Assembly: GCA_013265495.1 (NCBI GenBank)
Contig: MU058059.1
Coordinates: 3,077,502-3,141,501, forward strand
Direction: 5' to 3'
DNA: 64,000 nt
Source of the DNA: Vicugna vicugna
Lineage: Eukaryota
Positions 3,385 to 64,000 of the stretch are shown piece by piece. The position numbers were made by a program, and so were the translations under genes. A model generated the notes under the pieces. It saw only the letters and a program-made list of their open reading frames with translations. It did no database searches and was not told where the DNA came from. Position 1 is the stretch's first letter. Every line of letters begins with the position of its first letter.

Positions 3385-3795
3385 GTGACTGTAAGAAGAG
3401 AGAAGGAGAGGAAAGCGGGACTGGCTGCCTGCATCCCAGCTGAGCCCCGACTTCTAGTTTTCCCCCCTGAGACTTCATGGACCTGAACCACCTCCACAGG
3501 CCTGGACCACCTCTACAGATCTGAATCACCTCCATAGGCCTGGATCACCGGCACAGGCCTGAACCATATCCATAGGAGTGAACCACCTCCACAGGCCTGG
3601 ACCACCTCCACAGGTCTGGATCACCTTGGATCTCTCCAGCCCAACCAAGCCTGGATGACTGCAGCCCAGATAACATCATAGGAGCAGAAGAATCACCCCA
3701 ATGAGTCAGCCAGAGTCATGGGAGACAATAAAGTGTTGTTTTAAACCACCGAGTAGTGGGATGGTTTATAACCCAGCAGGAGATTACTGGGACAC
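3385..3795 (+). mobile_element. Old MaLR LTR (MLT1H/J-like) containing a minisatellite
   Basis: Motifs 'cccagctgagcccc', 'ggagcagaagaatcacccc', 'aataaagtgttgttttaaacca...gggatggttt' resemble the MLT1 3' end. Confidence 0.6.
3482..3625 (+). repeat. 19-bp minisatellite, about 7.6 copies (consensus CCTGRAYCACCTCCACAGG)
   Basis: Units read directly, starting at 3482, 3501, 3520, 3539, 3558, 3577, 3596 and 3615. Confidence 0.95.
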
Positions 3796-6459
3796 TGACC
3801 CAGGCCAGTTCCACCAGAAATGACACGTCTATCTTACCAGCCACTAACTTCACAATTCAGCTTGTTACAAGGGAAGTGGTCCTCTTCCCCGAAGCCCCCC
3901 AGCCCCTCTGTGCCCCTTAGAGTGAACTCTGCACCACTGTCTGCAGGGTTGCCCAGCGGCCCCACTGATGCGAGGGGGAAAGTCACGAGGTTTTCAGCTG
4001 TGACACCGGGTCACTCTGTCCCCAGGACGCAGCCCAGCCTTGTGATGGTGACAGCTCAAAAGCCACTCACCGAGGACTAAACAAGCACATGCAGTTTCAC
4101 CAACTGTCCTGTGTTCTCACGCCTCCACTTCCCAGGCTGCCTCGGTCACTCCCAACACTATCCCACTCTCGACTGACTAGCTTAGCTCTTTATCTTTAGG
4201 ACGGAGCTGGAAGTCACCCTTTCCCAGGCACCCCCCACCTATCCCCACCCCAAGCCTGGTAATTAAGGCCCCTCCCCTGCGTACCAGAGCAGCCATGATG
4301 GAGACAGGCTATGGGACAGCTGGAATAGCATGTGAGGACAGGATGGTCTGGCCTCTGCTGTGTGTTGAGGGACAGTTTCTTTGGCGTGTCTCCTGATGTC
4401 TCCTCCCTCATCCCCATGAGGCTGTTCCCCTGCAGCATTCCCATCCGTGACACTCAGCCATGAGGGTTTTCATCCAACGAAGTCAGATGAGCAGGAGATG
4501 CTCAGAGTCCCTGATCTGCTTTGAGCCACGAGGTGACTTTCCGGAGTCCATGGTGGGACAACTCCCTCCTACGGAGAGAAGTTTTCTAGATTTCAGAAAT
4601 TCCCTTACAGATCAATAGCCAGGCCTGGCCAACCTGAAGTAGACAGTCTGGGGTCCAGATAGTCCTAGGTGACCTCGGCAGAAAACTCATGGAGAAAGAC
4701 ACCAGCTGCCCGCCAGGCAGGCGTGCGGCTGCAGCTCCACCCGCCCGGCAGGTGTGCTCCCGGGTCCTTGTCTCTCGTTCTCATCAGCTCAGCCTCCACC
4801 CAGAAACCTCAGGAAATCCCTTCACTTGGCAGCCCAGACAGATGGTCTCCACGCTTCTCAGTACATGGACACTGCAGCCCACAGGGCAGCACAGAACAGG
4901 GGAGATTTATTAAGAGAAGGAAGCATCCGAAGCACACTGATCCTGCCCCACAGGGAACCCATGCCCTCTCCCGAGGACAGCACGCTCTCCTTCCGAAGCA
5001 CATCGGGTGCCAGCCCCGGAACTCCTGGTGGAGGAGGGGAAGCTGCATGCCGAGCAGGCTCCTCAGTGTGCAGCCCCGGGGGCCTCTGGGTAGACGGCGG
5101 CCTGGACACCCAACCCTGGGAGTCAGATCTCCGCCCCGGCACCCAGGGCTGACACCAACAAGACCCCCAGGGAAAGTCAGCAGCTCAATCTCTACTTTAC
5201 AATCATTACGTGGGAGCAAACCTGGCCCAATTCTTAGATTTTTAGTGGAGCAACCAGAATCTTTGCCACTTCCCAATTTCTGCAGAGCCCGTGGAAATTA
5301 CTCAATGATTCAGAAATAGAGGCTGAGCCTGGAGGACGTCTCAGTAAATCCAGGGCTGGGCCCCGCTTCTCCTCCCGGCAGGTAAGAGCCCGCTTCTCCC
5401 AGGGCCTAGCTCACCCTCACCAGGCACTGTGGGCCTCCACGAGTCCCCTCGCCTCACAGCACCTGTCTGGTGATCTGGGCAGAGGGCCGGCTCCTCACCT
5501 GTCCCTCTGGCTGAGCACAGAGACAGCCAGCCCTGGCCCCCTTCCCTTCCAGTCCACATCCTCCTCCTCCCTGCACCCTGACACACATGCTCCCACAACT
5601 CTGGGTGACAAGGGAGCAGTCACCTTCAGTTCACTGCTCTGGCCAAGAACGCACACCAGATGGAAGACCGCAGAGAGTGCTGGGCGCCTGGGAAGGGGGG
5701 GCTGTTTGGGGGGCTGTCACCATAACAACAGGAGGGGGCATGCCGAGGTTCCTATTCTCCGGCTGCCACTCATTAGGATGAACGTCCCCCTGGCCCTGGA
5801 GCAGCCGCGCCCTAGCGGCCTGCTACTGACAGAGGCTGGTTTCCTTCTCTCTGAGGAACTTCGCCCAAGACTGCAGTTGTGTTTGGTTGTTTTTTTCTTT
5901 TTAAAAAACCCTGACAGGTTTAAGAATGCTTTGTTTTCACGCTGTATTGTGAGGGCTCAGATGCCTCGGGATTCTTTCCAAACAAACACCATTCTGTGAA
6001 AATAAGAGGCAGCAGCATTAACTAACTTAGTGTTGAACAAGTTGGGGGCGGGGTGGGAGGCCACTTGTGGCCTCGCCCTGTGAGAGACTCAACAGGTGCC
6101 TCTCCCGGCCCCTCCGACAGCAGGACCAGCCGGAGCTCACGTTTGGAAGTGTGGTTTTCCCTGTTTATACAGTAAACCGTTTACTAAGGTTCATCCCAGA
6201 AAAGCATACGGTTGACGTGCAACGACCCTTCAAACTGATACAGGATTGGGTGGGTTTGATGTGGCTCTAGGGACCAAAAGTGAGAGCAAGTTTCACTGAG
6301 AATGCCAATAATTCAGTCTTCTTTCAAATCTCTGTGTATTAACTATGTTCCACAAAGGTTTGAGGCAGCTTACCGAAAAGCACGTATCAGATTTACAGAC
6401 ACAAATACTTGAGGGAATTGATGCTGGGAAAACAACGGGTAGGCGTATAAGAACACTAC

Positions 6460-6855
6460 GGTCGGGAGGTTTTGGACAAGGACGCCACGACAGCGCGCTC
6501 CGGCCTCCTGAGTGCCTGGAGCGCGGAGCAGGGCGCCCGCAGCGCGCTCACCGCCCTCGGCGGCCGGAAGCCGCGCCGCTGGCCCTGGTGAGCACGCCGG
6601 GCTCTGCTGGTGGGCGTGGTCCTCCCGCCACGGGGGAAGCGTCCCCGGGCACCCCCGCCTCTCCCCGCACCCGGGACGCGCAGCTCTGCCCTGCTGGCCG
6701 GCCAGGGAACGAACGAAGGGGCGGGGGCCCAAGGGCGAGGGGCAGCCCAGGCGGGTTACCCTCTTTACCTCCGACTGCGCCCCAGCGAGCACGTGGAACC
6801 AGCGGCCTCCCCACAGGCTGCTCGGGGCCTCAGAGCACTGACACCTCCGGAGTTG
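6460..6855. promoter_or_regulatory. CpG island, candidate promoter and first exon
   Basis: Dense CpG and high GC; ETS/GABPA CCGGAAG at 6564-6570; E-box CACGTG near 6790; G|GTGAGC splice donors on both strands (6546-6552 minus, 6587-6593 plus). Confidence 0.7.
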
Positions 6856-7132
6856 CCCTTAAACCAAAGGCTTTCTGCAAAAAAAGAAAAAAAAGGAAAA
6901 AAACTAAAAAAGAAGAAGACAACCTCTTGGCTTCCGGTTTGGATTTAGTGATGTTTGTTTTCCCAACGCTCTCCTGACCTTTCATAAGGCCTGAAACGTG
7001 ATACTCCCTGCAGATCTGCTGTCCCTGCTCTGATGAGGGAAACATCCAGAGAACAACGCGACTCCTCCGCATCTGTGCCTTCAGTCAGTCTAGTGGTGGT
7101 AAGATGCGAGTTCTCGTTCATGAACTGCAAAG

Positions 7133-7346
7133 CAGGGGTTCACACCTGGGGGCGGGGTGAGGGGAGTCTCCCGCCCCCAGGAGGCAGCTTTAGCTGTCAC
7201 ACCGATGGCGGAGGGGAGCGCTATGAGCGTCTGTTGAGTGGGTCGAGGCCAGGCATGCTGCTAACACCCCCCGTGAGGACAGCCCCCCTCCCCCAGCAAA
7301 ACGTGATCCAGCGCGAAACGTCAACAGTGCAGAGGCTGAGAAACCA
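7133..7346 (+). mobile_element. MER20 (hAT-Charlie MITE)
   Basis: Matches MER20 motifs 'gtgggtcgaggccaggcatgctgctaa...ggacagccccc...aaacgtcaacagtgcagaggctgagaaacc'. Confidence 0.75.
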
Positions 7347-32745: not shown

Positions 32746-34149
32746 GTCCCGTCTTAGATGTCCGAGGTGCTGGCTGGACTCCATGGGGAGTCAGAAGCCA
32801 AGCTGAACTTGTACTTCAGAGTCCTGAGGCCAAGCCCTCCTTACATATCACACCCCTGTTCTAACAGCAGACTCCATGTCCTCCAAATATGCCTTTTGCT
32901 GAAGTCATCCCGGGCACCTGCAGTTCATAAAATACTTTACTACCCGTAAACTTCACTGTGATTGATTCAAGTTCAACATTTCCCCTGGAATGTCAATCAA
33001 CTCCAGGCGGAGCTGTCAAACCCAATTGCTCAGAAACCAGCTGATACAGACTATTCATAAAGCCATGTGGAACAAGGGAGCTGTGAAGCTCACTTGATGT
33101 CTTTCCTCTCTCCTCTCCTCCGCCACCCACTGTCCTTGTCCTGGTGTCCCCGTCCCACCAGCGCTCGGGAAGCTTCTGTACTCGGCTAGTCTGCGTCCCG
33201 GTGGTCGTAATTCTGTGCCTTTTGTGTGCTTCTGTCGCCACCTAGCCGTCGCGGGGAGAACCGCTCCTCTCTGGGCTAACCTCCCTCCTTCCACATCCAT
33301 GCCCTCTCCCACCTACAGGTGTACCTTTAGACCCAGGAGTCCACAGTCCTCTCGACAACAAACACGTGTGTGCTGTCTTTTTTCAGTAGGAATCTTCTTT
33401 GGTACTTGTGTCCAAGGCCTAACCATTTAAAAGGAAGTATAAAAAAGTCGTAGCACAGAGAACTGGCATCACTTGAGTCATCTCAGCCCCCAGATGGGAT
33501 GCGTCACTCCTTTAGAAGCTCTCTGCTGGTAAGAACCGTGCCTTGTTTCTCTCCGAGTCCCGGACGCCACCAAGAACATTCCACGTGCCCATGTCCGGTC
33601 CGCCTGGTCGGAAGCTGTCTCCTCCCTGAAACTGGCAAGTTTCTGCTCATTCTGCAATTACCGCGTGCCAGGAGCTTGGTGAGCATGCCTCGTGTGATCC
33701 TCGTGACAATCCTCGTGACAATTATTTCCGTCTTACAGTCGAGGGAAGTGAGGCAGAGTGAGGTCCCAAAGCTGGGCCCCTCCCCCGACCTAGGACTCTT
33801 CCTCAACACTCAGTCCCTCTACTGCTCCTCCGCCAGCGTTTGTCTGTCTTCCTCCTGCCATTTTTCCATTCCCCTCCCCTGCCTTTAGCTTACATTCCTC
33901 TTTCTCTGAACCTGAAACTCAAGCCCCCTGGGACATCGTCCTCTGCGGTGTATGTGCAGAAGCTCATGTGTGGGGTCCTCGGGACCGCAGTGTGCACTCA
34001 CTCACCCACCTGTGAAACTGCAACAGCTCCCGGTACCGAAAGGTTGTTGCTTCCGAAGGAGAGGTGCTGACAGTGTGAAAGCAGGCCTGGCTGGGAACAG
34101 CGAGCCTTGGTTTAATTTTTCTTTTTTTTTTCGGTAAACTGATCAGCAA

Positions 34150-35165
34150 GTGAGAGCAAAGACGTCAGTCTGGGCGCTTCAGCCTTGGGCAGGCTGAGTA
34201 GAGGCATCAAAGAAAATAGGTCTCAAAGCCGGGAGTCTGTCTGGGTAATGACCACAGGGTCCCCCAGAGGCCGGCCTGGGAGGTCCCCGATCGGAATCCC
34301 TGCGGCGCGGAGGTGGGCTCCCCGGAGGAGGCGGAGGGAGGAGGCGGAGGAAGGAGGCGTCCTTCGGTGCAGGGCTCAGAAAGAAAGAACGCTGGGCTGC
34401 AGGTTGTTCGAGGGAGCGTGGGATAAGGCAGTGAGCAAAAGCAGGATGGGAGTGAGTAGAAAGGGGAAGAAAGGAAAAGGAAGTGATAACAGGTGTGCGC
34501 AAAGGTTGGCGTCATGACACTGAACAACAATGCGGGGTGGACGCAGGCCAGTCAGCCAGGTATGGAGTCCTCAGGGCCCTGCGATGTCAGCGTGACCCCT
34601 TGGCCCTGGAGGCCCAGGTATGTCCTGGAGACATGCATGCACGCGGCCCCCGGGGGGCGGACCCTGGCTGTGCACCTGCAAGGAGCAGTGCAGTCTTTAA
34701 CCAAACACCGCTCTCATCGAGTCTGTGCTGACTGAATATCTACCCTGGGACTAGGAGGGAGGGAAGAAAAACGTGAATGTCTGGCACCATCAAGGGGCAA
34801 AGGGGAGCTGAAAACCTGGCAGGTCAGATCGAGCTGCCCGCCGCCCGGTTCTGGTGGTGTGGCGGCCCCCGTGGTCGTAGCTGCGACCCTCCCCGCCCGC
34901 GGAAGCAGTCCTGGCAGGAGCCCCCGACCAGCTGGCTGAGCAGCAGCCGGACTTCCAAGGCCAGGAACCAGCTGGTCAGCTGGGCCAAAGCCCAGTGACG
35001 AGCCTGGCGGGCTGGTCTTGGCGGCCTCCCGCGCCTCCCCCGCTCCGTGCCCGGCCCACACAGGCGGCTCACCTCCAGCCGCCTGAGTCAGACACAAAAC
35101 CCCGGCCAGCTAACGAGGAGCCGCCGCGCCCCTGCCTCGGGGCTTCACGAAATGTGCACTTCTCA
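34150..35165. promoter_or_regulatory. CpG-rich regulatory region (enhancer or alternative promoter)
   Basis: Elevated CpG; CRE-like GACGTCA at 34161-34167; three CAGCTG E-boxes (34929, 34969, 34977); ETS cores; AP-1 TGAGTCA at 35084-35090; minus-strand donor GAG|GTGAGC at 35073/35072. Confidence 0.6.
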
Positions 35166-36344
35166 TCATAGGCCCGCCCTGGGATTTCTATTTCGAGACC
35201 CAGAATTTCTGACTTTCCAAGAAGGAACCCAGCACCCAGGGTTGTGAAAAAAAATCACAGACATTAACGTTTTCAGAGTCTGCTTCTCCCGGTGGACAAG
35301 TTCCAAAAACTCACCTGCCCAGAGTCCCGTGCCTATGTTAAGACCACACTGTCCCCCTGCGTCTTGAGGACGTTTGGGGCTGTTTCTAATTACTCCCTGC
35401 ACTTGGGGGAATTCAGTTTTGCTTTGGGTGATTGGAAACTATTTCCGTCTTCCCATATGTATTTGGTTATCACTAATTGGAGAAAGTTATTTTTAGTATT
35501 TCTTCTTCTTTCCAGCTTTGTAGATCTGCCCTATTTAGGGGGGAAAAATCTAGAAAAGAGTAGTTTGGGGGATTTTTTTTTTTAGAGGAATACCAGAGAT
35601 GCTTTTAAAGGTCTACAAGCAAACTTTTCATGTTCAGTGGGGAAGTCAGTAAGAGGAACAGGGAAGGCAACGCCTGGATTTTATTCCACACACCTGTGCT
35701 GGCACAGCAAGGCAGCCAGGGGTCCTTTCATCCTTCAAGACTCCGGTCAGTGTCAACTCCTCCAAGGGGCCTCCTGTATCTCCCCTGTTCTCCTCCTGCT
35801 CCAGGCAGACCCATGGTCCTCAAATTCAACAACCACACAAGCCCTGTACCTTGCTATGTTTTCAGATACTACCTGCACCCCCAGAGAATTCTGCCAAGTT
35901 TAGGCATCTTTTAAAAAATATGGAGAATTCAAATCTGATTTAAAATCTGTTTTACTTAATCTCTCCCAAAGCAACTTCTACTAATTAGTAATCTGATAAG
36001 CAATTTTAGAAGTATTTCAGTACTTAAATTATTTTAATAACCCCAGCACACAGCTATTTGTTTAATGCTATCAAAGTTAAATGGTATTTTTTATCACTTG
36101 GTTTAATATTTTGTTTTTAACTATCACTTACCAAAAATAATTTTTTAAAAAGCAATTGTTGAACCACATAGAAAAATGAAACTTTTACTATTTTGATTAG
36201 GGTAGACCTGTCAGTAGTACTCAAAAGCTGGTTACTATGGAAGCACCTTAATTTTTTCAGTTCTTCATTATGCCGAGTCTTAGAATTAGGAACTCTTTCA
36301 AATATGTGAGAACTTTAGAAAAATTTAACTGAAAATGAATTAAC

Positions 36345-41379: not shown

Positions 41380-44300
41380 TTACTGAAGATACGTTCACAA
41401 GAAAAATGCACAGACCACACAAAGAAAGAGAATCACAAGGAACAGCAAACAGGAGGGTGAGCACTCCCCAGAACTAAAGACACTGGAACCAGCTGAAAGA
41501 GTTTATTAATTAAGTTTGTTTGAAATACTGAGATAAAAGAAGGTACAGAAATCATAAGGCAAATACAGGGTAATACGGGAAAAGGACACATGTTTTTGAA
41601 AGGGAACCATGTATAAATCGTGGAAATAAAAGGAAATAATTATTGAAATTAAAAGCTAGCAGGTAGGGAAATAGTATATTAGACCCAGCTAAAAAGAAAA
41701 TTAGTGAATTGAAATATAATTCTAGGAGGACAGTATAGCTCAGTGGTAGAGTGTGTGCTTTGCATGCACGAGGTCCTGGGTTCAATTCCCAGTACCTCCG
41801 TAAAATAAATAAATAAATAAATAAATAAACCTAATTACCTCTCCCAAAAATAAATTTAATTTAATTTAAAAAATTGTACTGCTAAAAAAATAAAATAAAG
41901 AAGAAATATAAGTCTAGAAAAAGTCTGTAGCACAGAGGTGAAAATAGGAAAGAGGCTAAGATACATAAAGATAGAATGAGAAACCCCAAAGTGTATGTAG
42001 CAAAAATTACAGAAGAAAACAACAAAAAAATAGAGGGCAAGGCAGTATTTTAAAAGTTAAAGGTTGAAAATTTTCCTGAGTTGAAGACGGAATCAGTCTT
42101 TGGATTAAAGAAATATATCAAGGATCTGAGCAGGAAAAATAAAAGCAAAATCCCACCTAAATATATTGTAGTGAAATAGCAGGTCATCAAAAATAAAGAA
42201 AAAAGTCTTAAAAGCTACTAGACGATAGATCAGAGAATGGAAATCATGTTGCAGAAGACTCCTCCGCAACAGAAGGCAAATGACCATGACGGTATTTCAA
42301 AGTTCTGAGAAAAAAAAAAAAACCTGCCTCCCTGAACTCTGTCGCAGTGACACTGTCATTCAAGAGTGAGGGCAAAAGAAACGTTTTCAGACAAGAAAGT
42401 TTACTCTTTACAGGCTTCCCTGGAACTGATTTAAAACGTACCACAGGAAAATCGGATTGGAGTGGTAGGCAAGAAGTATGCGGTAAATACTGTGGTGAAT
42501 CTAAATCAGCATTCACTGTAAATAATAAGGATGGTGCTGAAACTGACAAATGTGGTGGGGGTCAGGGTAGAAATAAAATGGAATTAAAGTGCCAGAAAGT
42601 GACAGCATGGAAGCTAGAAAGTTGGTTCTCAAGAGTTCTCAGGTTTTTGTATTATTGAACTAACAGAAGTATTAATTTTACAATCTGACGAACCGAAGTA
42701 TTAACTTTACAATTCAGGTAAATATTTGTGTTAAAAATTGAGAAGAATAAACGGATAAATCGTTAAATTAATTGGGGAGAGCTAGGCAAAGAAAACAAAG
42801 ACAACCCCAATCAATTCAATAGAGGTCAGGAATTGGGGTGAAGGGGGGCCGTGGTAAATGGGAAACAGTAAGATGATAGAAAAGATCAAATCTATCAGTA
42901 AGCAAAGCAAATGTAAGCACACTGTATGTGCCTAAGAGACTCACCTCCACGTACAAGATTAGTCAGATGTTGCTCTACTCTTTGTGGCTTGGAGTTTTAG
43001 TAACGAGAAGTTAGTGTACTGTCATTCTTCTTTGCTCTGTATGGAATGCATCTTTTTTTCTGGCTGCTTGTAAGATTTTTTTAAATTGTTGGCTTTAAGC
43101 AATTTGATTATGAAATTATAGTGGCACTTGTGCCCAAATTAGTCTGTAGATTTAACCCAATGATAAAAAGCTTTATAAAAGAGTTTTTATAGAGGTTGAT
43201 ATGCTGAGTGTAAAATTTATGTGACTATAAAAAGGACGTGGAATAGCCAAAACAACTTCTTTAAAAAGTTGGTAGACTTATAGTACCTGGGTTATACTGT
43301 CTGATTTCAAAGCTTATTATAAACCGGTAATAACTGAGACAGTCTAATCGAGACAAATAATCAATGGAACAGAATGGAGTCCAGAAACAGATTCACACAC
43401 CTGTGGTACACTGATTTTTGACAAAAATACAGAGGAAGTTCAGCGGAGAAAACTTCTAGAAGGAAAAACAGGAGAAAGTCCTAGTGGCCTTTGGTTTGGC
43501 AAAGATTTCTTAAACACAAATTTTATAGCATAAACTATAAAAGCAACCCCTCCTCCCGCCCGCACATCCCCCTGCCTGTTTCAGACAACCACGGATCTCC
43601 TGTCTGTCACTGTGGAATAGTTTGAATGCTCTAGAAATTTCAAAGAGATGGAAACATACAACAGACGGTCTTTTGTGTCTGGCTTCTTTTGCTCAGCAGG
43701 AAGTTTGTAAGGTTTGTTCCTACAGCAGGTGTTAAGTAGTTTGGTTGTCATTGTTGTTTTTCTAGCTGCTAAGTGGTACTCCACACTTTGTCCTGTCCCC
43801 AAGTAACGCGCTCTGGAGCGGTTTCCATGCTGGAGTTACTATGAACGGTGCTACTGTGCACAGCCACATGTGAGTAAGTACAAGACTTTGTGTGGAAGTG
43901 TGTTTTCATTTCTCCTGGAGTTTGTTGTTTCCCTAGGAGTAGAACTGTAAGGTCATGGGGTAACTAGATCTTTAACTATTTAATCAGCTTCCAAAATGAT
44001 TTACAAAGTGGCTGTGGTCATTTCACGTTTCCACCAGAAATGCAGTGGTGTTGCAGTCTCTCTGTTTCCTCGTTAACACTCTGCTTGTCTGTGTTTTTGA
44101 GTAGAGTCATTCTGGTGGTGGTACAGTAGCATCTCAGTTTGATTTCAATTTCATTTCCCCAATTAAGTTTAGTGTCTTTGCATGTTCTTATTAATCATTT
44201 ATATGCCATTTTAAGACTACTAAAATATTTTGTCCATTTAAAAAATTGGGTTTCTTATTGTTAGTATTGACTTATAAGAGTTCTTTATATATTTTAGATA

Positions 44301-47751: not shown

Positions 47752-47860
47752 CGGGGAGGGGTTGGTATAGCTCAATGGAGAGCATATGCTTAGTATGCAC
47801 GAGGTCCTGGGTTCAATCCCTAGTACCTCCATTAGTAAGTAAACAAACAGCCCCCCACAA
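47752..47860 (+). mobile_element. tRNA-derived SINE (Vic-1-like)
   Basis: 'ggggagggg..tatagctcaatggagagcatatgcttagtatgcacgaggtcctgggttcaatccctagtacctcc'. Confidence 0.85.
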
Positions 47861-48325: not shown

Positions 48326-48977
48326 CCCTGTTTTTTTAATTTTTTCTCTGCTACCTCAATGTTATAGAGTCTTGCTATAGTCTTTGTGTCTCCATAAGGC
48401 ACCTTAAATCCTTTTTGGGACAAAACAGGGACAGAAATAAATTTTTTAAACTTATAAATAGAGGTAGCTTCACGTCCCAGATTTTCTAAATCAATGTGGT
48501 TTTTCTTCCTGGGTTGAACATAAGCTTGTGGGCCAAGTCTCCAGCCTGGAAAATTACTGACTCACCTTGGCTATCTACAGCTGTGGGTGCACTAGGAGCC
48601 TGTTCTATTTTGACATTTACTTTTTTTCCACCCTCTGGATCCAGAAACAATTGTGTCCAAGAATTGTGCAAGAATTGAACAGACATTCCCAGTCTGAGAG
48701 CAAATGTTTGCCTCATCAAGTCCCAAACAACCTCGTTCTCAGGTTTTGTACATGGATTTTTTTTTTAACAATATACCTTGAAAAGTACACCAATGAGATT
48801 CCTTCATCGCAGAATTTTTGTCCTCAGCTTCGAGCCAGAGGATGTTTGTTAAAGGAAGAAGGAAATCTACAGCACAGGCCCCGGGAAGTCAAGTTTCTCT
48901 GAGTCTATAACTGCAGACTCATGGTCCTCAGAAGGGAAATCAGGCAGCTGAATTTCAGTGTATAAAGTGGAGCCAAC

Positions 48978-50892
48978 TGATCATCTCAATAGATGCAGGA
49001 AAAGCATTTGATAAAATTCAACACCCGTTTATGATAAAAACTCTCACCAAAGTGGGTATAGAGGGAACATAGCTCAACATAATAAAAACTATATCTGACA
49101 AACCTACAGCCAGCATAGCACTCAACGGAACGGTGAAAAAAAGCTTCCCACTAAAATCTGGGACAAGACAAGGATGCCCACTATCACCACTCCTATTCAA
49201 TGTAGTCTTGGAAGTTCTAGCCACAGCAATCAGGCAAGAGAGAGAAATAAAAAGGGATCCAAACTGGAAGAGAAGAGGTAAAAGTGTCGCTATATGCAGA
49301 TGACATTATATTATATATAGAAAACCCTAAAAGGTCCACACAAAAACTACTAGAAATAATTGAAGAATTCATCAAGGTAGCAGATTTCAAGATTAACATT
49401 CAAAAATCAGTTGCATTTCTTTACACTAATGATGAATCAACAGAAAAAGAAAGTAAAGAAACAATCCCCTTTAAAATAGCACCCAAAGTAATAAAATACC
49501 TAGGAATAAATCTAACCAAGGAGGCGAGGGACTTATACACGGAAAATGATAAAACAATGATTAAGGAAATTAAAGAAGACTTAAAAAAATGGAAAGATAT
49601 CCCATGCTCCTGGATTGGAAGAATCAATATTGTTAAAATGGTCATACTGACCAAGGCAATCTACAGATTTAAAGCAATCTCTAGCAAATTACCCAGGACA
49701 TATTTCACAGAACTAGAACAAATCATAATAAAATTTATATGGAACCACAAAAGACCTAGTAATGCCAAAACATTACTGAAGAAAAAGAAAGAGGCTAGAG
49801 GACTAACTCTCCCAGACTTCAGACAATGCTGCAGAGCTACAGTCATCAAGACAGCATGGTATTAGTACAAAAACAGACATATGGACCAATGGAACAGAAC
49901 AGAGAGCCCAGAAATGAACCCACAAACTTTTGGTCAACTAATCTTCGACAAAGGAGGCAAGAATATACAAGGGAATAAAGACAGTCTCTTCAGCAAATGG
50001 TGTTGGGAAAACTGGACAGCAGCATGTAAATCAATGAAGCTAGAACACTTCCTTACACCATATACAAAAATAAACTCAAAATGGATCAAACATTTAAACA
50101 TAAGACAAGATACAATAAACCTCCTAGAAGAAAATATAGGCAAAACATTATCTGACATACATCTCAGAAATGTTCTCCTAGAGCAGTCTACCCAAGCAAT
50201 AGAAATAAAAGCAAGAATAGACAAATGGGACCTAATTAAACTTACAAGCTTCTGCACAGCAAAGGAAACCATAAGTAAAACAAAAGACAACCTATGGAAT
50301 GGGAGAAAATTTTTGCAAATGAAACTGACAAAGGCTTGATCTCCAGGATATATAAGCAGCTCATATGACTTAATAAGAAAAAAACAAACAACCCAATCCA
50401 AAAATGGGCAGAAGACCTAAACAAGCAATTCTCCAAGGAAGACATACAAATGATCAATAGGCACATGAAAAAATGCTCAATATCNNNNNNNNNNNNNNNN
50501 NNNNNNNNNNNNNNNNNNNNNNNNNNNNNNNNNNNNNNNTATGCAGATGGCTCAAAATACTAGGAATAGACTTACCATACGACCCAGGAATCCCACTCCT
50601 GGGCATATACCCAGAAGGAGCCCTACTTCAAAATGACATCTGCACCCCAATGTTCACAGCAGCACTATTTACAATAGCCAAGACATGGAGACAGCCTAAA
50701 TGTCCATCGACAGATGACTGGATAAAGAAGGTGTGGTATATTTATACAATGGAATACTATTCAGCCATAAAAACCTACAACTAACGCCATTTGCAGCAAC
50801 ATGGATGTCCCTGGAGAATGTCATTCTAAGTGAGTAAGCCAGAAAGAGAAAGAAAAATACCATATGAGATTGCTCATATGTGGAATCTAAAA

Positions 50893-50931
<39 letters not shown>
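48978..50931 (+). mobile_element. Young LINE-1 (ORF2 RT through C-terminus), 5'-truncated and lacking the 3'UTR, with TSD
   Basis: ORF 49284..49865 contains the RT motif LYADD; ORF 49881..50339 continues ORF2; (TAAA)n tail; TSD ataaagtggagccRaYtg at 48962-48979 and 50932-50949. Confidence 0.96.
50485..50539. other. Assembly gap (55 N) inside the L1
   Basis: Run of N. Confidence 0.99.
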
Positions 50932-50935
<4 letters not shown>

Positions 50936-51403
50936 AGTGGAGCCGATTGGAGTGAAATGAGAGAGATGGGGGTGGTGGGTAGCGGGAAAGAGAAAGCATC
51001 TCTGTGACTGATTGAATTGTTTCATTCATTCATTTTTTAAACACTCACTAATTCATTCATTCAGCATTTATTCCCACTTGGAGATCCCCCTTCCAGAATC
51101 CTTCAGCAAAGCTATGTTCAATGTTAACAGGTCAGTGTTCCCATACAAAGTGAAAGGAGGTCATGAAGGTCTTCCTGTGCCGGCCTGCTCTGGACCTGGG
51201 CCCATGAGGCCAGTTCAAGGCTGTGGACAGTTACACGTTGTCTACTGCATAAGGACACTGCATTCAAGGGGGCATCCTTCATATGACCTATTTATCAGGA
51301 CAATATTCTGGCAGATGGAAGTATAGATCTTGTACCAACAGAATTCAGTGTATTAAGAGAGTTTCCCAACAAACAGAAATACAGTGTCTTGTGGAAAACA
51401 TAC

Positions 51404-51502
51404 CTTTATTTATTTGGTTTTTCAATGGAGGTACTGGGGTTTGAACCCAGGATCTCCGTGCATGTTAAGCGTGCACTCTACCACTTGAGCTATACCCTCC
51501 CC
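51404..51502 (-). mobile_element. tRNA-derived SINE (Vic-1-like)
   Basis: Reverse complement reads ggggagggtatagctcaagtggtagag..ctgggttcaaaccccagtacctcc followed by an A-rich tail. Confidence 0.85.
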
Positions 51503-51799
51503 TCTAGTTATGTGACTTTTAAATAATACATTTTATTTTTATTTTGTTTCAGTACCTATGAATGAAGATAACAAATACTGACTGAAACAAAAGCATTAAA
51601 GTTAAAATTTGTCATTCCAAATTCACAAGACTAAAAAAGTGATAAGAAATATATACAATTAAGGCTTCAAATCGAGTTTTTTGTAAACGTATGGCATCTG
51701 TACTTCTGACACTACTACTAAGGTTTAAAACCGCACAGAGGCTTTTGGGGGACTGTGTACAGCACGCTGAGTTTTGTCTGTAAACAACATGGCCTAGAG

Positions 51800-52620
51800 A
51801 TCCTTCTGCACCGAAACGGAAGCGCTCCCTACAGCTGCTGGGTGTCCTGGCACGCTGGGGTCCCCGTCTCCTGTCCGTGGCTACCTGGGCTGTTTCTGAT
51901 CACAAGTGGCGCAGCGACCGTCTTGGAGACCCCAGGGCACGTCGTCAGAGGTGGGGATGTGCGGTCAAACTTGCCCACCTCCCAAGTGGGTCCCAACAAG
52001 TGTCCTACCTGCTGTCGCCTCAGCCAGTAGAAGGCGTTCACGTTGGGTTGAGAAGCCAAGGAGCTTTAACCTCCGGGCAGGGGACGGGGAGGCCGGAGCT
52101 CTGTGGGACCTGCAGCGGGAGGGGCGGGGCTGGGGCGGGGCAGCGGCTGCTCACGGCACAGATCCGGTGCCGGGCGCAGCGCCCCTTCCGCCATCTTGAA
52201 CAGGGGGTCGTGGGCGGGGCTTCTACACACTCTCCCCCCCCCAGGTATGCGCATGCGCGGACGTCCCTCGGAAAGGCACTCTTGCCTGCGGCGCCAGGTG
52301 AGAGGCCGCTGGACGCGACGCCCTGGGATCGAGTGGAGCCCGCCTCCGCACAGAGGAGGAAAGGTTAGACTTTATTTTAACGACCAGGTTCTATCTTTAT
52401 GTCCTGGGAACTGTTCACAGGCCTTGGCGGTGCGGGATCCCTCCTGCCTTCGCTCCTGCCCCTCGCGGTCCAGGGTGCGGGGCGCAGGCTGTGGTCTCCG
52501 ACTGCTTCCTGGGAATCCCGGCCGCCTTGGGACCCCGTGGTGACCCCGGGTGGAGGGCTGAAACCTCTCCAGCAACCTTTAGGCCTGCGTGGTGGCCCCC
52601 AGGCCTGGGCCCTGACCCTG
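51800..52620 (+). promoter_or_regulatory. CpG-island housekeeping-type promoter with candidate non-coding first exon
   Basis: Tandem GC boxes at 52121-52140; ETS/YY1 CTTCCGCCATCTT at 52185-52197; GC box near 52212; NRF1 TGCGCATGCGC at 52248-52258; donors CAG|GTGAGA (52297) and AAG|GTTAGA (52363). Confidence 0.85.
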
Positions 52621-52744
52621 TTAAAGCCCCATTTGTGTACACTCGGTGGCCCCTACAATGAGGAAGTAATCCTTTTTAGGAAGTTTTGCTGCTTCTAAGA
52701 GCTTCAGTATGCTTAAGCCTGTATGTTTCACCTGTTTGTCCAAA

Positions 52745-52747
<3 letters not shown>

Positions 52748-52782
<35 letters not shown>
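52748..52782. repeat. (TG)17 microsatellite
   Basis: Read directly. Confidence 0.98.
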
Positions 52783-52783
<1 letters not shown>

Positions 52784-53377
52784 TGGCAAACTGTGTAAAT
52801 CATTCAGGATCTTCCCTGTCCCGAGTTCTAAGGCTCAGGTGAGAGAGCCATTAGCTTGGCCTTTTGGGCAGGAGCGCAGGAGTCCCCAGGGAGGCTGCTT
52901 GCCTCTATGCCTTTGGTCTGGAAGGTCACTGCATATCCCACCAGCCTTTTCCCTGTCTAATGAAACTGCTCCCGTCTGTGAACCGTTCCTCTTCGGCATT
53001 TGGGAGAGGCCGACTTCCTAGGTTGGGGCAACTGAAATAGGTCATGTCTATGGTTTCTACACAGTCATGCTCCTGGGACCCCATTTCCGTGGGTTAGCAG
53101 GGTGGCAGGATTTAGCATGTGACAGGTTTTTATGGTAGCCACTGGGTTGTCGAAAAGCATAGCCTGTACTTGAATCGACCTTCAGGGGACAGCCGTTCTG
53201 TTCCCTTGGAACTCACTAAAGCCTGAACTGGGTGTTGAGTCTGTATAGTGACTGGCTGACCAGACACCAGGGTGCATTCTGGTGGCTCTGTGAATGCCCG
53301 TTCTCAGGCCTTCCCTGGTACTCTCATACTTTTACAACCCTTGTGACCAAGTTTGAACACCAGATCAGGCAAACTTT

Positions 53378-53781
53378 GGGAAGCAGGAGCTCAGCTCCAG
53401 AGCACAGGCTCCTGGACAGGCCGGGCGGGGCTGCTCTGTCCAATGAGCAGCGGGAGGGGGTGGGGCTGGGGGCAGGGCAGCTGCTGGGCAGGCTCCAGGT
53501 CGCAATGCCAGGCACAGAGTCTCTGCACATGGCCCCCCTCCACCATCTTGAACTGAGCGTCATGGGCAGGGCTCCTGCACACGGCCCAGCTGAGGTGTGT
53601 GCGTGCACGGACATCGCACACCAGGAACTCTGGTCTGAAGCCCCAGATTCCAAGCCTTTGCTCATGGTGTCCTGTGAAAGAGTGGATCTGGACTCAGCAC
53701 AGAGGAAGAAAGGCTAGATTTTATTTTATTACTCAGGTTCTATTTTTATTTCCTGGGTATTGTTCATGGGCTTTGCCGGTG
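53378..53781 (+). repeat. Degenerate direct duplicate of the promoter/first-exon module at 52050-52432
   Basis: Colinear blocks in both copies: gcagcgggagggg, ccatcttgaac, tgggcRgggct, cagaggaRgaaaggYtagaYtttatttta, caggttctatYtttat.tcctggg. Confidence 0.9.
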
Positions 53782-53814
53782 ACAAAACCTTAATTTTCTG
53801 CAGTAAAAATAAGG

Positions 53815-54190
53815 TGTGACAGGTTGTTTGCAAAGATGACTGTAGTAATCCCTCCCATCTGTGTGCACATCCTTTTGTGGGGTAACTTGGCCACTTCTGT
53901 CTCCATGAGATAGAGTTTTATTTTTCCACCTGTGGAATCTGGGCTGACTTGTGACTCACTTTGGCTAATAGAATGTGGAGAAAGTGATGTGGTTGGACTT
54001 TCAGGCTTCCAAAATCCTTGCGGCGACTTCTCTCTCTCTCTCTCTCTCAGTTCACATGATCTTAATCCTGAGCACACCCAAAACCTGGCTGGCCACCAGA
54101 CGGTCCCGTTTTTAGGAAGAGACAACAGGAGGCTTAGTGTGCTTCTGAGCAGTGGCCACATGAGGGGCTTCGTCTCCACAAGGCAGCACT
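53815..54190 (+). mobile_element. MaLR LTR (MLT1F/G-like)
   Basis: 'tgtgacaggttgtttgcaaagatg..cctcccatc..gaatctgggctgacttgtgactcactttggctaatagaatgtgg'. Confidence 0.75.
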
Positions 54191-54434
54191 TCTTACTGTT
54201 GAGTGATTTCCATGGTTAAAGGACAAAGCTCGGCTCCTACGTCATCCCCTCTGGCACATACTAAGGCTCTTCTCGCTTCAAGGAAGGAAGATGAAGAGTC
54301 TGAGACAATCCTAGTTAGCTTTATCTGGCTCAAAGGAAAGGGTACTTTTGATTTCAGTTAATGAACCAGCATACCAGGTTTTCATGGTGAAGAAATCAAC
54401 TTAATGTGTTGAAACTAACATTTTTTAAAATGGC

Positions 54435-54925: not shown

Positions 54926-55849
54926 AAAATGAAATAGAGTAAAATACAGGTTACATGGATGTGTTCACTGTGGGAAAGTTCACCAAACTCTACACATGCG
55001 ATCGTGTATCTTGCTGTGTATTTGCTTCAATAAAAGAAGTAATTATTTTAAAGTGGAACAGAAAGTGTCAGCAGCGTTGCCTGTAGTAAGGATTGGGGAT
55101 GTGTGCGTGTGCACACATGTGTGTGTGTGCTGAATCATGATGTAAAATGTATTTCCGGTTGTTGTTTTTTAAAAATTGAGAAAACATTATGCTAGGGGCT
55201 AGTCTCCATTTCCCACGGCTGTGGCTCCTTCCTTTTTGAATTTGATGTGGTTTTCCCAGTGGAAGTGATTTAATTTTGACTTTCAGTTTCTCAAGCAGAA
55301 AAATCCTATCCCTTGGGCCGTCTCTCCATCATAATCATTTTTCTCCATCTGACTGCTCACGGTAACTAGATTTCACATGCTAGGTTGGCCAGGAGGTTCA
55401 CGTACTGACATTCTATCATCTTGCTCCATGGACTGTTCACGAAAACATTAGCATACGTTGTGATGAGGAATTATGACCTGGGCTTTACGCTTCCATTCAG
55501 AAAAACTAGAATTCCTTAAGTCATGGAGTGTTTGGACTTAAAAAAGTCATTGGTGGTTATGGCTTCTAAACCTCTTACTCGTAGGCATCCTCTCAGTGAC
55601 ACCCAAACTGACAGGTTGTTCGTCTTGTGCCTGAACGCTTCAGTGACAGCGAGGGCTCCCAGTGCATTGCTGAGCAGCTTCCGTTGTGGAAAGTGTGTGA
55701 GAACAGCTTCGTGGTAGAGTTGGGTGGCTTGCAGAGACATCTCAGATCACCTGACAAACAGGCTTCTGGACATGTTACCACATTTCAAAGGCATCCTTCC
55801 TGGGGACTGTGTATTGGCTTCTAAGAGTGCCCTTTATCCTTTGGCAAGT

Positions 55850-58823: not shown

Positions 58824-58925
58824 ACTGGCCTATTATTTTGTGTTTTGACGGCCCCAGGGCCAAAGCAGCATTTCTCGCAGATTCTTAAAACTGCAGTAGA
58901 AAGATGTGACTGTCTACCTCTTTTG
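58824..58925 (+). other. Candidate internal exon (102 nt) of an unidentified plus-strand transcript
   Basis: Acceptor 'ttttttattttacag|' and donor 'TTG|gtaaga'; lies in non-repeat sequence; no recognisable protein. Confidence 0.35.
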
Positions 58926-62710: not shown

Positions 62711-64000
62711 TAAGGACCGAGCAGACTGCCAAGGCAACGTACTGTCTCCAGCCCACAGGCTTCCTTCTTGGTGCCTGGGGGCCAAATAGCCTGCAGTTTT
62801 CCCTTGATCCTCGGAGGGGCTGATCATCGTGAATCTACCCACTTAGACCCAAGAAACCTTCTTTGGCGAGCAGAGCCCCGCATTTTGTGAGGGATTATCA
62901 GATGCTCCCGCAGACAGAGGTGTGATGGTGCGACCGTCAGGGCCTCTGGGACAGGCTTCCCACCTGTCAGCCCACGGGGCCGCATCTGAGTAAACGCTGT
63001 GGACGTCGTGGGGTAGGGGCTCTTGTGCTCCATCCTGACGGCTTGGCAGTGCCGAGTGGCAGGGACCTGCCTCTCCAGTGCTTCCCCCCCAGGGCTCCTT
63101 CTAATCAGGGGGTCCCCTGTGGCACTTGCGGGATCGGGAGTCACAAGCCCGTGACACGTCAGTTCCTCCTATGCAGTCAGCCCAGATGCAACAGCAATGC
63201 GCTGACCTGGCCGAAGGCGCTGTCCCCAGGTTTTGTTGGCTCCCTTTTCCCTTTGGTGAGGGTGCGATCTCTGCCCAAACCCCGTCAGTTGACTCCAAGC
63301 GTGCTTCTCCCTGAAGGACCAGCGATGATGGTCCCCTGGGTGCTTACGTTCAACAGAGCCATAAAGTTTGAGGTGCTCCCCACCCTTCCTCCAGAGTTCC
63401 CCGGCATACTCAGATGCACGTGCTCGAGGCTGGGGACACCTTGGTCCCACTTCTAATCGATTTTTAGCTTGAACCAGGAGGAGGGAGAGGTGGGTGGGGG
63501 ATCCGAGGAGAGAGCTGCTCCGGGCCAGTGAGTAAGCACGTTTACTTTCTGTTTCAGGTGGCTGCCTGTTCAGACTCAACCACACTGCTCTTGAGTGTGG
63601 CTCACTGCGGACACTGTGTCCTCGCTGCCGGCACCATTTATTTTAGCACTGGGGACAGTGCTCAGCAGCCAGGCCGCACTGTCTCCTGGCTGGGCTTACA
63701 GGGAGTGATAGCACCTCCTCCCCCTCCTGCCTGGAGGAGGGTGGGCAGTGGCCAGCGCACCGTTTGGAAGGCGTCTTCGGCTCTTCCACTCAGCCTCTGA
63801 CGCGCGTTAGGGGCCAGGACAGAGCGCCTCACCCCAGCCCCTCACTGCCCGGCGAGAGCAGCCGCGTCCGAGCCCCAGGGAGTCTTCTTGCAGCGCCTGA
63901 TCCCGTCCCCGGAACGTCTCCGCTTCTCGTCCAGAAAGCTGTGGATCTATTAGAATCCTGTCTTCTCACCAAAACTTAAGAATTGGGAAGGCTCTGAGAT

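Follow-up and report, generated by a model that had tools for sequence, protein, structure and literature searches.

An old local duplication of a promoter-like CpG-island block with one-sided CpG loss in Vicugna vicugna

In a 64-kb stretch of Vicugna vicugna DNA, which will be referred to as the window, a CpG-rich block carrying canonical promoter motifs (copy 1) is accompanied by a CpG-depleted homolog on the same strand (copy 2). Comparison of their letters supports a duplication that is real, local and old and took place at the DNA level. On the reading that we prefer, with a probability of about 0.6, both copies would have been functional for a while before copy 2 was methylated in the germline and began to decay.

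Results

The window is mammalian, rich in repeats and without an evident coding gene. Several fragments that we take to be L1 lie across it; one of them, a plus-strand fragment at 48960-50936 that presumably represents L1 ORF2, is broken by a gap of 55 N (50485-50539) and terminates with an (AAAT)n tail, some 1.1 kb to the left of copy 1. Three tRNA-like elements (41729-41800, 47761-47831 and 51426-51499) with a mutual identity of 82-84% are probably SINEs, to judge from their sequence. Besides the CpG island around copy 1, a second strong island lies at 6250-7250 (CpG o/e up to 0.85), with two ETS-like sites (6564 and 6930) and two GC boxes (6718 and 7149). The regions 33000-35500 and 63500-64000 are also CpG-rich (o/e 0.5-0.68), neither of them containing an NRF1 or YY1 consensus; position 63560 is preceded by an acceptor-like site. 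A 19-bp minisatellite of 7.6 copies with 75% matches occupies 3482-3626. The duplicated region itself is made up as follows.

52048-52097, plus strand: 5′ extension of copy 1, weakly homologous as judged from shuffles
52098-52432, plus strand: core of copy 1, CpG-rich, defined by alignment to copy 2
52433-53375, no strand: spacer of 943 bp, lacking a convincing second copy and containing (GT)n at 52748-52782
53376-53432, plus strand: weak 5′ extension of copy 2, with an intact GC box GGGCGGGG at 53423-53430
53433-53781, plus strand: core of copy 2, CpG-depleted, with a 14-bp insertion after 53519
53815-54050, no strand: old repeat-like sequence beginning just past copy 2 (resembling an MLT1 LTR), read by eye with approximate limits

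Within the core the two copies are identical at 242 of 332 alignment columns (73%), and self-blastn joined 52112-52432 to 53447-53781 at 69% identity with an E value of 4e-31. Local alignment under four scoring schemes yielded scores of 146, 114, 718 and 10033, compared to maxima of 29, 18, 123 and 1527 obtained from 60 block shuffles; in all four schemes the observed score was 6-9 times the shuffle mean. The first-pass annotation had described 52050-52432 and 53378-53781 as colinear homologs about 1.34 kb apart, and pairwise alignment bears this out by self-blastn and by all four schemes, with a core far above the shuffles and a weak 5′ part, the score of 52048-52097 against 53376-53432 being matched by 12 of 2000 shuffles. 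The offset between the copies grows from 1328 at the 5′ end to 1349 at the 3′ end, where homology stops sharply at 52432 and extension scores are negative immediately. A long alignment spanning 51657-52745 was rejected as an artefact of cheap gaps.

Two homologous blocks on the same strand and near one another are what a tandem (local) promoter duplication leaves behind. A head-to-tail unit, in which flank or spacer was also copied, was not found: the spacer gave no significant match to the sequence upstream of copy 1 (38 of 150 shuffles were as good) or to that directly downstream of copy 2 (24 of 150). As the spacer is without a counterpart, either the block alone was copied or the remainder of the unit has been lost among later insertions. 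Weak colinear similarities were observed between 52913-53159 and 55385-55679, at a level reached by 4 of 164 unrelated stretches, and between 52748-52800 and 55100-55147, which is not significant against unrelated stretches; by sequence, these could be the displaced rest of a longer duplication unit. A third copy near 55100-55440 was considered and rejected, the similarity consisting of a GT-rich stretch and a 30-mer that were matched by 17 of 228 unrelated stretches. Elsewhere in the window no third copy was detected on either strand (best score 2050, compared to 14159 for the pair).

The K2P distance between the copies is 0.34, and 0.26 when CpG columns are masked. The latter value exceeds those of SINE and L1 pairs within the window (0.18, 0.19 and 0.21) and is smaller than that of an older L1 pair (0.33). 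At a neutral rate of 1.5-2.2e-9 per site per year the duplication would date to roughly 60-90 million years ago, or earlier if constraint slowed the change; an age of tens of millions of years is probable.

The two copies differ strongly in their CpG content. Copy 1 has 31 CpGs (o/e 0.75) at a GC content of 0.66 over 383 bp, and the 500-bp windows across 51751-52750 qualify as CpG island (GC > 0.5-0.55, CpG o/e > 0.6, length >= 200-500 bp). The island extends beyond the duplicated block by about 250 bp on the left and about 170 bp on the right, and its CpG content suggests that copy 1 would be unmethylated and lie in open chromatin. Copy 2 has 10 CpGs with an o/e of 0.29, level with the spacer (0.28) and close to the whole window (0.34), and its CA o/e amounts to 1.85. 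Fourteen CGs of copy 1 face TG or CA in copy 2, compared to one in the opposite direction (P=0.001), and three aligned CGs are conserved in both copies. Consistent with this, transitions affect 17 of 55 copy-1 C or G positions within CpGs and 20 of 165 elsewhere (P=0.003). The excess of CpG to TpG or CpA changes in copy 2, which had been predicted from the sequence, was thus observed; with two sequences and no outgroup, the direction of every such change is inferred. Nine of 27 aligned CpGs of copy 1 face states other than CG, TG, CA or TA, so that some CpGs were probably gained in copy 1, and part of the asymmetry may reflect this gain.

The features of copy 1 are listed below.

51800-52600, no strand: CpG island around copy 1; 200-bp bins with GC 0.62-0.69 and CpG o/e 0.55-0.87
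52121-52140, plus strand: two GC boxes GGGGCGGGG, at 52121 and 52132, which we take to be of the Sp/KLF type
52188-52197, plus strand: YY1 consensus CCGCCATCTT, the sole one in the window
52211-52219, plus strand: third GC box TGGGCGGGG
52248-52258, no strand: NRF1 consensus TGCGCATGCGC, the sole one in the window
52295-52303, plus strand: candidate splice donor CAG/GTGAGA (GT at 52298) by consensus match, lost in copy 2
52344-52432, plus strand: well-conserved 3′ block with a purine run, a weak donor AAG/GTTAGA (GT at 52364) and a T-rich stretch

The canonical promoter motifs of copy 1 exceed chance expectation. The NRF1 and YY1 sites lie 50 bp apart and occurred jointly in 2 of 200,000 shuffles of copy 1, and two of the five perfect GC boxes of the 64 kb are in this copy. 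The NRF1 consensus is quoted as YGCGCAYGCGCU in PMC3563663, and a set of the NRF1/YY1/Sp1 type is described for TATA-less promoters in bioRxiv 10.1101/2024.05.28.596138 and PMC11269187. A promoter origin of the block is therefore well supported by its motif content. CpG richness, Sp1 boxes, YY1, NRF1 and two GT donors had all been ascribed to copy 1 beforehand and were found in place, the "donors" at 52298 and 52364 being consensus matches only. That at 52298 has the top donor-like score near the island, equal to a site at 52839, under an assumed scoring matrix. In the 3′ block, 14 of 83 non-CpG positions differ between the copies; folding of its RNA gave no structure signal relative to shuffles (z -0.24 to 0.40).

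Remains of the same motifs are colinear in copy 2, namely GGGGTGGGG (a GT box) at 53457, GGGGCAGGG at 53469, CCACCATCTT at 53540 and TGTGCGTGCAC at 53598, and the donor sites read CAG/ATTCC and AAG/GC (53713). The first-pass annotation had attributed these differences to CpG decay. Both donor changes (GT to GC and GTGAG to ATTCC) are not CpG events, and of the three NRF1 differences one has the opposite sense, copy 1 reading CA where copy 2 reads CG. Reciprocal motif loss had also been proposed, and the two sites in question are present in copy 2, GGGCGG at 53423 and CCAAT at 53440. This part of the proposal is nevertheless weak: shuffles of this poorly aligned 5′ part produce the GC-box hexamer in 45% of cases and a CCAAT in 12% (1.5% together with its NF-Y-like 3′ flank), and the CCAAT has no strict 5′ purine pair and fails the strict consensus. 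The CCAAT may have been present in the ancestor and disappeared from copy 1, a direction of loss that two sequences cannot give.

Between the copies, seven differences fall within the five motifs (the three GC boxes, YY1 and NRF1), all of them CpG-type transitions. All six CpGs wholly within the motifs of copy 1 are altered in copy 2, including both NRF1 half-sites. Non-CpG differences amount to 0 of 33 positions inside the motifs compared to 26-27% of 237 positions outside, and this was the same under four alignment settings. If copy 1 had been constrained and copy 2 neutral since its birth, about 14.5% of the motif positions should differ, giving a P of about 0.006 for the observed value. 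Leaving out the two G-run boxes, in which gaps have some slack, the result is 0 of 19 (P=0.05), and with only YY1 and NRF1 retained it becomes 0 of 12 (P=0.15). As the test was chosen post hoc, with the alignment already seen, it is suggestive and not proof. Simple decay that set in with the duplication itself nevertheless fits badly with motifs that kept every non-CpG letter.

A late neutral phase of copy 2 was simulated with a 10-fold CpG rate and branch lengths of 0.08-0.13, the rates being assumed. At these lengths, 15-75% of runs left no more than 3 of 28 CpGs, and 5-24% had zero or one other change in the motifs; for branch lengths >= 0.16 the value was 5% or less. CpG loss and intact motifs are thus both compatible with late neutrality, and a two-phase history is enough to account for them, present function not being required.

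The strand of transcription from copy 1 is suggested differently by two lines of evidence. According to PMC11269187 and bioRxiv 10.1101/2024.05.28.596138, NRF1 sites lie upstream and YY1 sites just downstream of the TSS, with a strong strand bias of YY1. Given this order, and with the presumed letter orientation of YY1, the motifs suggest minus-strand initiation near 52200-52240. On the minus strand of the YY1 site an ATG in good Kozak context opens 42 codons. Rightwards on the plus strand, 3-4 donor-like sites but not a single poly(A) hexamer occur within 1-2 kb, and the minus strand, leftwards, has 2-3 donor-like sites and 4-5 poly(A) hexamers over the same distances. These counts favour a stable plus-strand transcript; a "first exon" on this strand is putative. 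The motif order and the counts could be reconciled by a promoter that is bidirectional and yields a stable RNA from the plus strand.

A coding role of the block was not apparent. None of 120 ORFs right of 50940 matched Pfam, and protein searches returned nothing for the minus-strand ORF 52069-52371 (790 candidates, longer proteins only) or the plus-strand ORF 52070-52540 (759 candidates, of similar lengths only). A duplicated coding exon was rejected on the basis of mismatches of 31, 39 and 34 by codon position and gaps of 1, 2, 7 and 14 nt. Two plus-strand stop-to-stop frames, 51784-52368 (194 aa) and 53220-53717 (165 aa), both end at a homologous TAG after AAG/G; they are probably due to chance because codon periodicity is absent. 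A strict exon scan gave two candidates, both unrelated, and missed the following one.

58824-58925, plus strand: candidate internal exon of 102 nt with pyrimidine tract, CAG acceptor and G/GTAAGA donor

This candidate has one open frame of 34 codons and no Pfam match. Rfam gave no match at gathering score for 51500-54400, with sub-threshold hits only. A YY1-gap-NRF1 pattern was found at 76 metagenome loci, none of which aligned to either copy (4 of the 76 gave hits, of microsatellite type only), and a pattern for the shared 3′ block had no occurrence in viral contigs. Of the sampled words of 52000-54000, a fraction of 0.23 was present in two RNA runs of one study (21 runs listed), a figure that specifies neither the part of the interval nor an origin from RNA. 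No paper describing the locus was found, a search limited by the gene having no name, so that it may be present in print.

Discussion

The data are best explained by a history in two phases. A local duplication at the DNA level would have copied some 350-385 bp of a TATA-less CpG-island promoter, comprising the GC boxes, YY1, NRF1 and the nearby splice-donor region, to a position 1.34 kb downstream. We infer that binding and selection persisted at both copies through much of their history, with the result that the spacers between the motifs diverged and the motifs did not. Copy 2 would later have been methylated in the germline, and its NRF1, YY1 and GC-box sites would have lost their CpG cores to deamination more quickly than change could accumulate at the other positions. 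Copy 1 presumably stayed unmethylated and gained some new CpGs; it may today be a working, probably bidirectional, promoter of some gene or lncRNA, with copy 2 mostly a decaying relic. The intact GC box, the GT box and the CCAAT retained in copy 2 count against its being a relic. From the original proposal, the old DNA-level duplication and the one-sided CpG loss are thus upheld, as is the promoter origin on account of the motifs; simple decay since birth fits badly.

The alternative that survives best, to which we nevertheless assign a rather small chance, is that copy 2 is still selected as a CpG-poor counterpart of copy 1, either a tissue-specific alternative promoter or an enhancer. The methylation-sensitive CpG cores would then have been lost, and Sp/KLF-type GT and GC boxes, the CCAAT box and a weaker YY1 core kept. 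The restriction of all seven motif differences to CpG-type transitions would be expected in this case, as would the rarity of a CCAAT with NF-Y-like flank in shuffles and the well-kept 3′ block. Moreover, both members of a tandem promoter pair can serve as TSSs, as in the REF1 case treated below, and binding sites can arise by CpG deamination according to PMC3228489. Against it stand the change of six motif CpGs including both NRF1 half-sites, the loss of both donors, a CpG o/e at the level of the spacer and a CCAAT without the strict 5′ purine pair; late neutrality also accounts for the data without present selection (P 0.05-0.24). Slightly less probable again is the fuller version, in which copy 2 would be a living "CpG-free twin", selection having kept every non-CpG letter of the five motifs while germline methylation stripped the CpGs. 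With the same slender likelihood, a methylation-sensitive NRF1/YY1/Sp1 housekeeping promoter would here have turned into a CpG-poor Sp/KLF plus NF-Y element for other tissues.

It is improbable that copy 2 was dead on arrival, the intact motif letters being due to chance and to alignment slack in the G-runs, and some of the CpG richness of copy 1 being a later product of GC-biased gene conversion. The motif test does become borderline once the G-run boxes are omitted, non-CpG differences with the strong base in copy 1 outnumber those with the weak base by 27 to 15 (P=0.09), and GC-biased gene conversion is listed among the sources of orphan islands in PMC11170920, which discusses both CpG-island decay and conversion-made islands. 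However, non-CpG transversions are even (7 and 7), which together with the lean of 27 to 15 suggests that GC-biased conversion is not needed. Moreover, P is about 0.006 with all five motifs, and conversion would not make exact NRF1 and YY1 sites whose remains copy 2 already has. Least probable is a dispersed repeat (an L1 5′ UTR monomer or LTR) as the source of both blocks, through two insertions or a duplication, followed by exaptation of copy 1 as a CpG island. In its favour are the abrupt 3′ edge, the old repeats on either side and the YY1 sites, which L1 5′ UTRs typically carry. Against it, there is no third copy in the window, inspection of the ends by eye revealed neither a target-site duplication nor a poly(A) tail or terminal repeats, all of which would have decayed at this age, and the tail of the nearby L1 points towards the island, so that this L1 cannot own the block as its 5′ UTR.

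Tandem duplication of promoters has already been described, and the locus is a tidy new example of it. In the human REF1 family, small tandem duplications gave rise to two homologous promoters that are both active (bioRxiv 10.64898/2025.12.03.692127). As there, a promoter was copied locally without the whole gene, leaving two homologous tandem elements, and the REF1 event is described as ancient. The REF1 copies differ in that both overlap open chromatin and act as TSSs, the family having 29 open members that spread via segmental duplication; the present locus has two copies of 73% identity, one of them CpG-depleted, and is known from sequence alone, so the likeness is one in the kind of event. 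Rapid TSS turnover after duplication was reported by Park and Makova (2009, PMC2687787), with only 64% of duplicate pairs sharing a TSS at Ks 0.1. There, one copy of a duplicated start region likewise loses its promoter character; the pairs considered are whole-gene duplicates, whereas here the promoter block alone is detectably duplicated. The motif set of copy 1 matches that of NRF1/YY1/Sp1 CpG-island promoters of the housekeeping type (PMC11269187; bioRxiv 10.1101/2024.05.28.596138). In those promoters the motifs are positioned relative to the TSS; here the motif order and the donor and poly(A) counts point to opposite strands.

A similar motif set is also present in the conserved activator sequence (CAS) of SNRPN intron 1. 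This element reportedly binds Sp1 as well. According to PMC3563663, the CAS is compact, bound by NRF-1 and YY1, and in mouse located about 1.7 kb from another NRF-1-bound promoter. Among the Rfam matches in the window there is no PWS-region snoRNA or SNORD array, and the ORFs tested gave no Pfam match; nothing found in these searches ties the locus to the SNRPN CAS.

New at this locus, and suggestive as read from the alignment, is that the non-CpG letters of the motifs are intact (0 of 33) while their surroundings diverged. If copy 2 were still active, the pair would show how, at a single locus, a CpG-island promoter can be turned directly into a CpG-poor one with tissue-specific use; and if copy 2 were indeed a CpG-free twin, the pair would amount to a natural experiment, with both states side by side, on the change of CpG-island promoters into CpG-poor ones. 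The two copies share a common ancestral sequence and neighbourhood and have motifs differing by CpG transitions only, which suits them to a paired reporter comparison. Should the two-phase history that we prefer be true, the locus would represent a clear, though not unusual, fossil of turnover among promoters.
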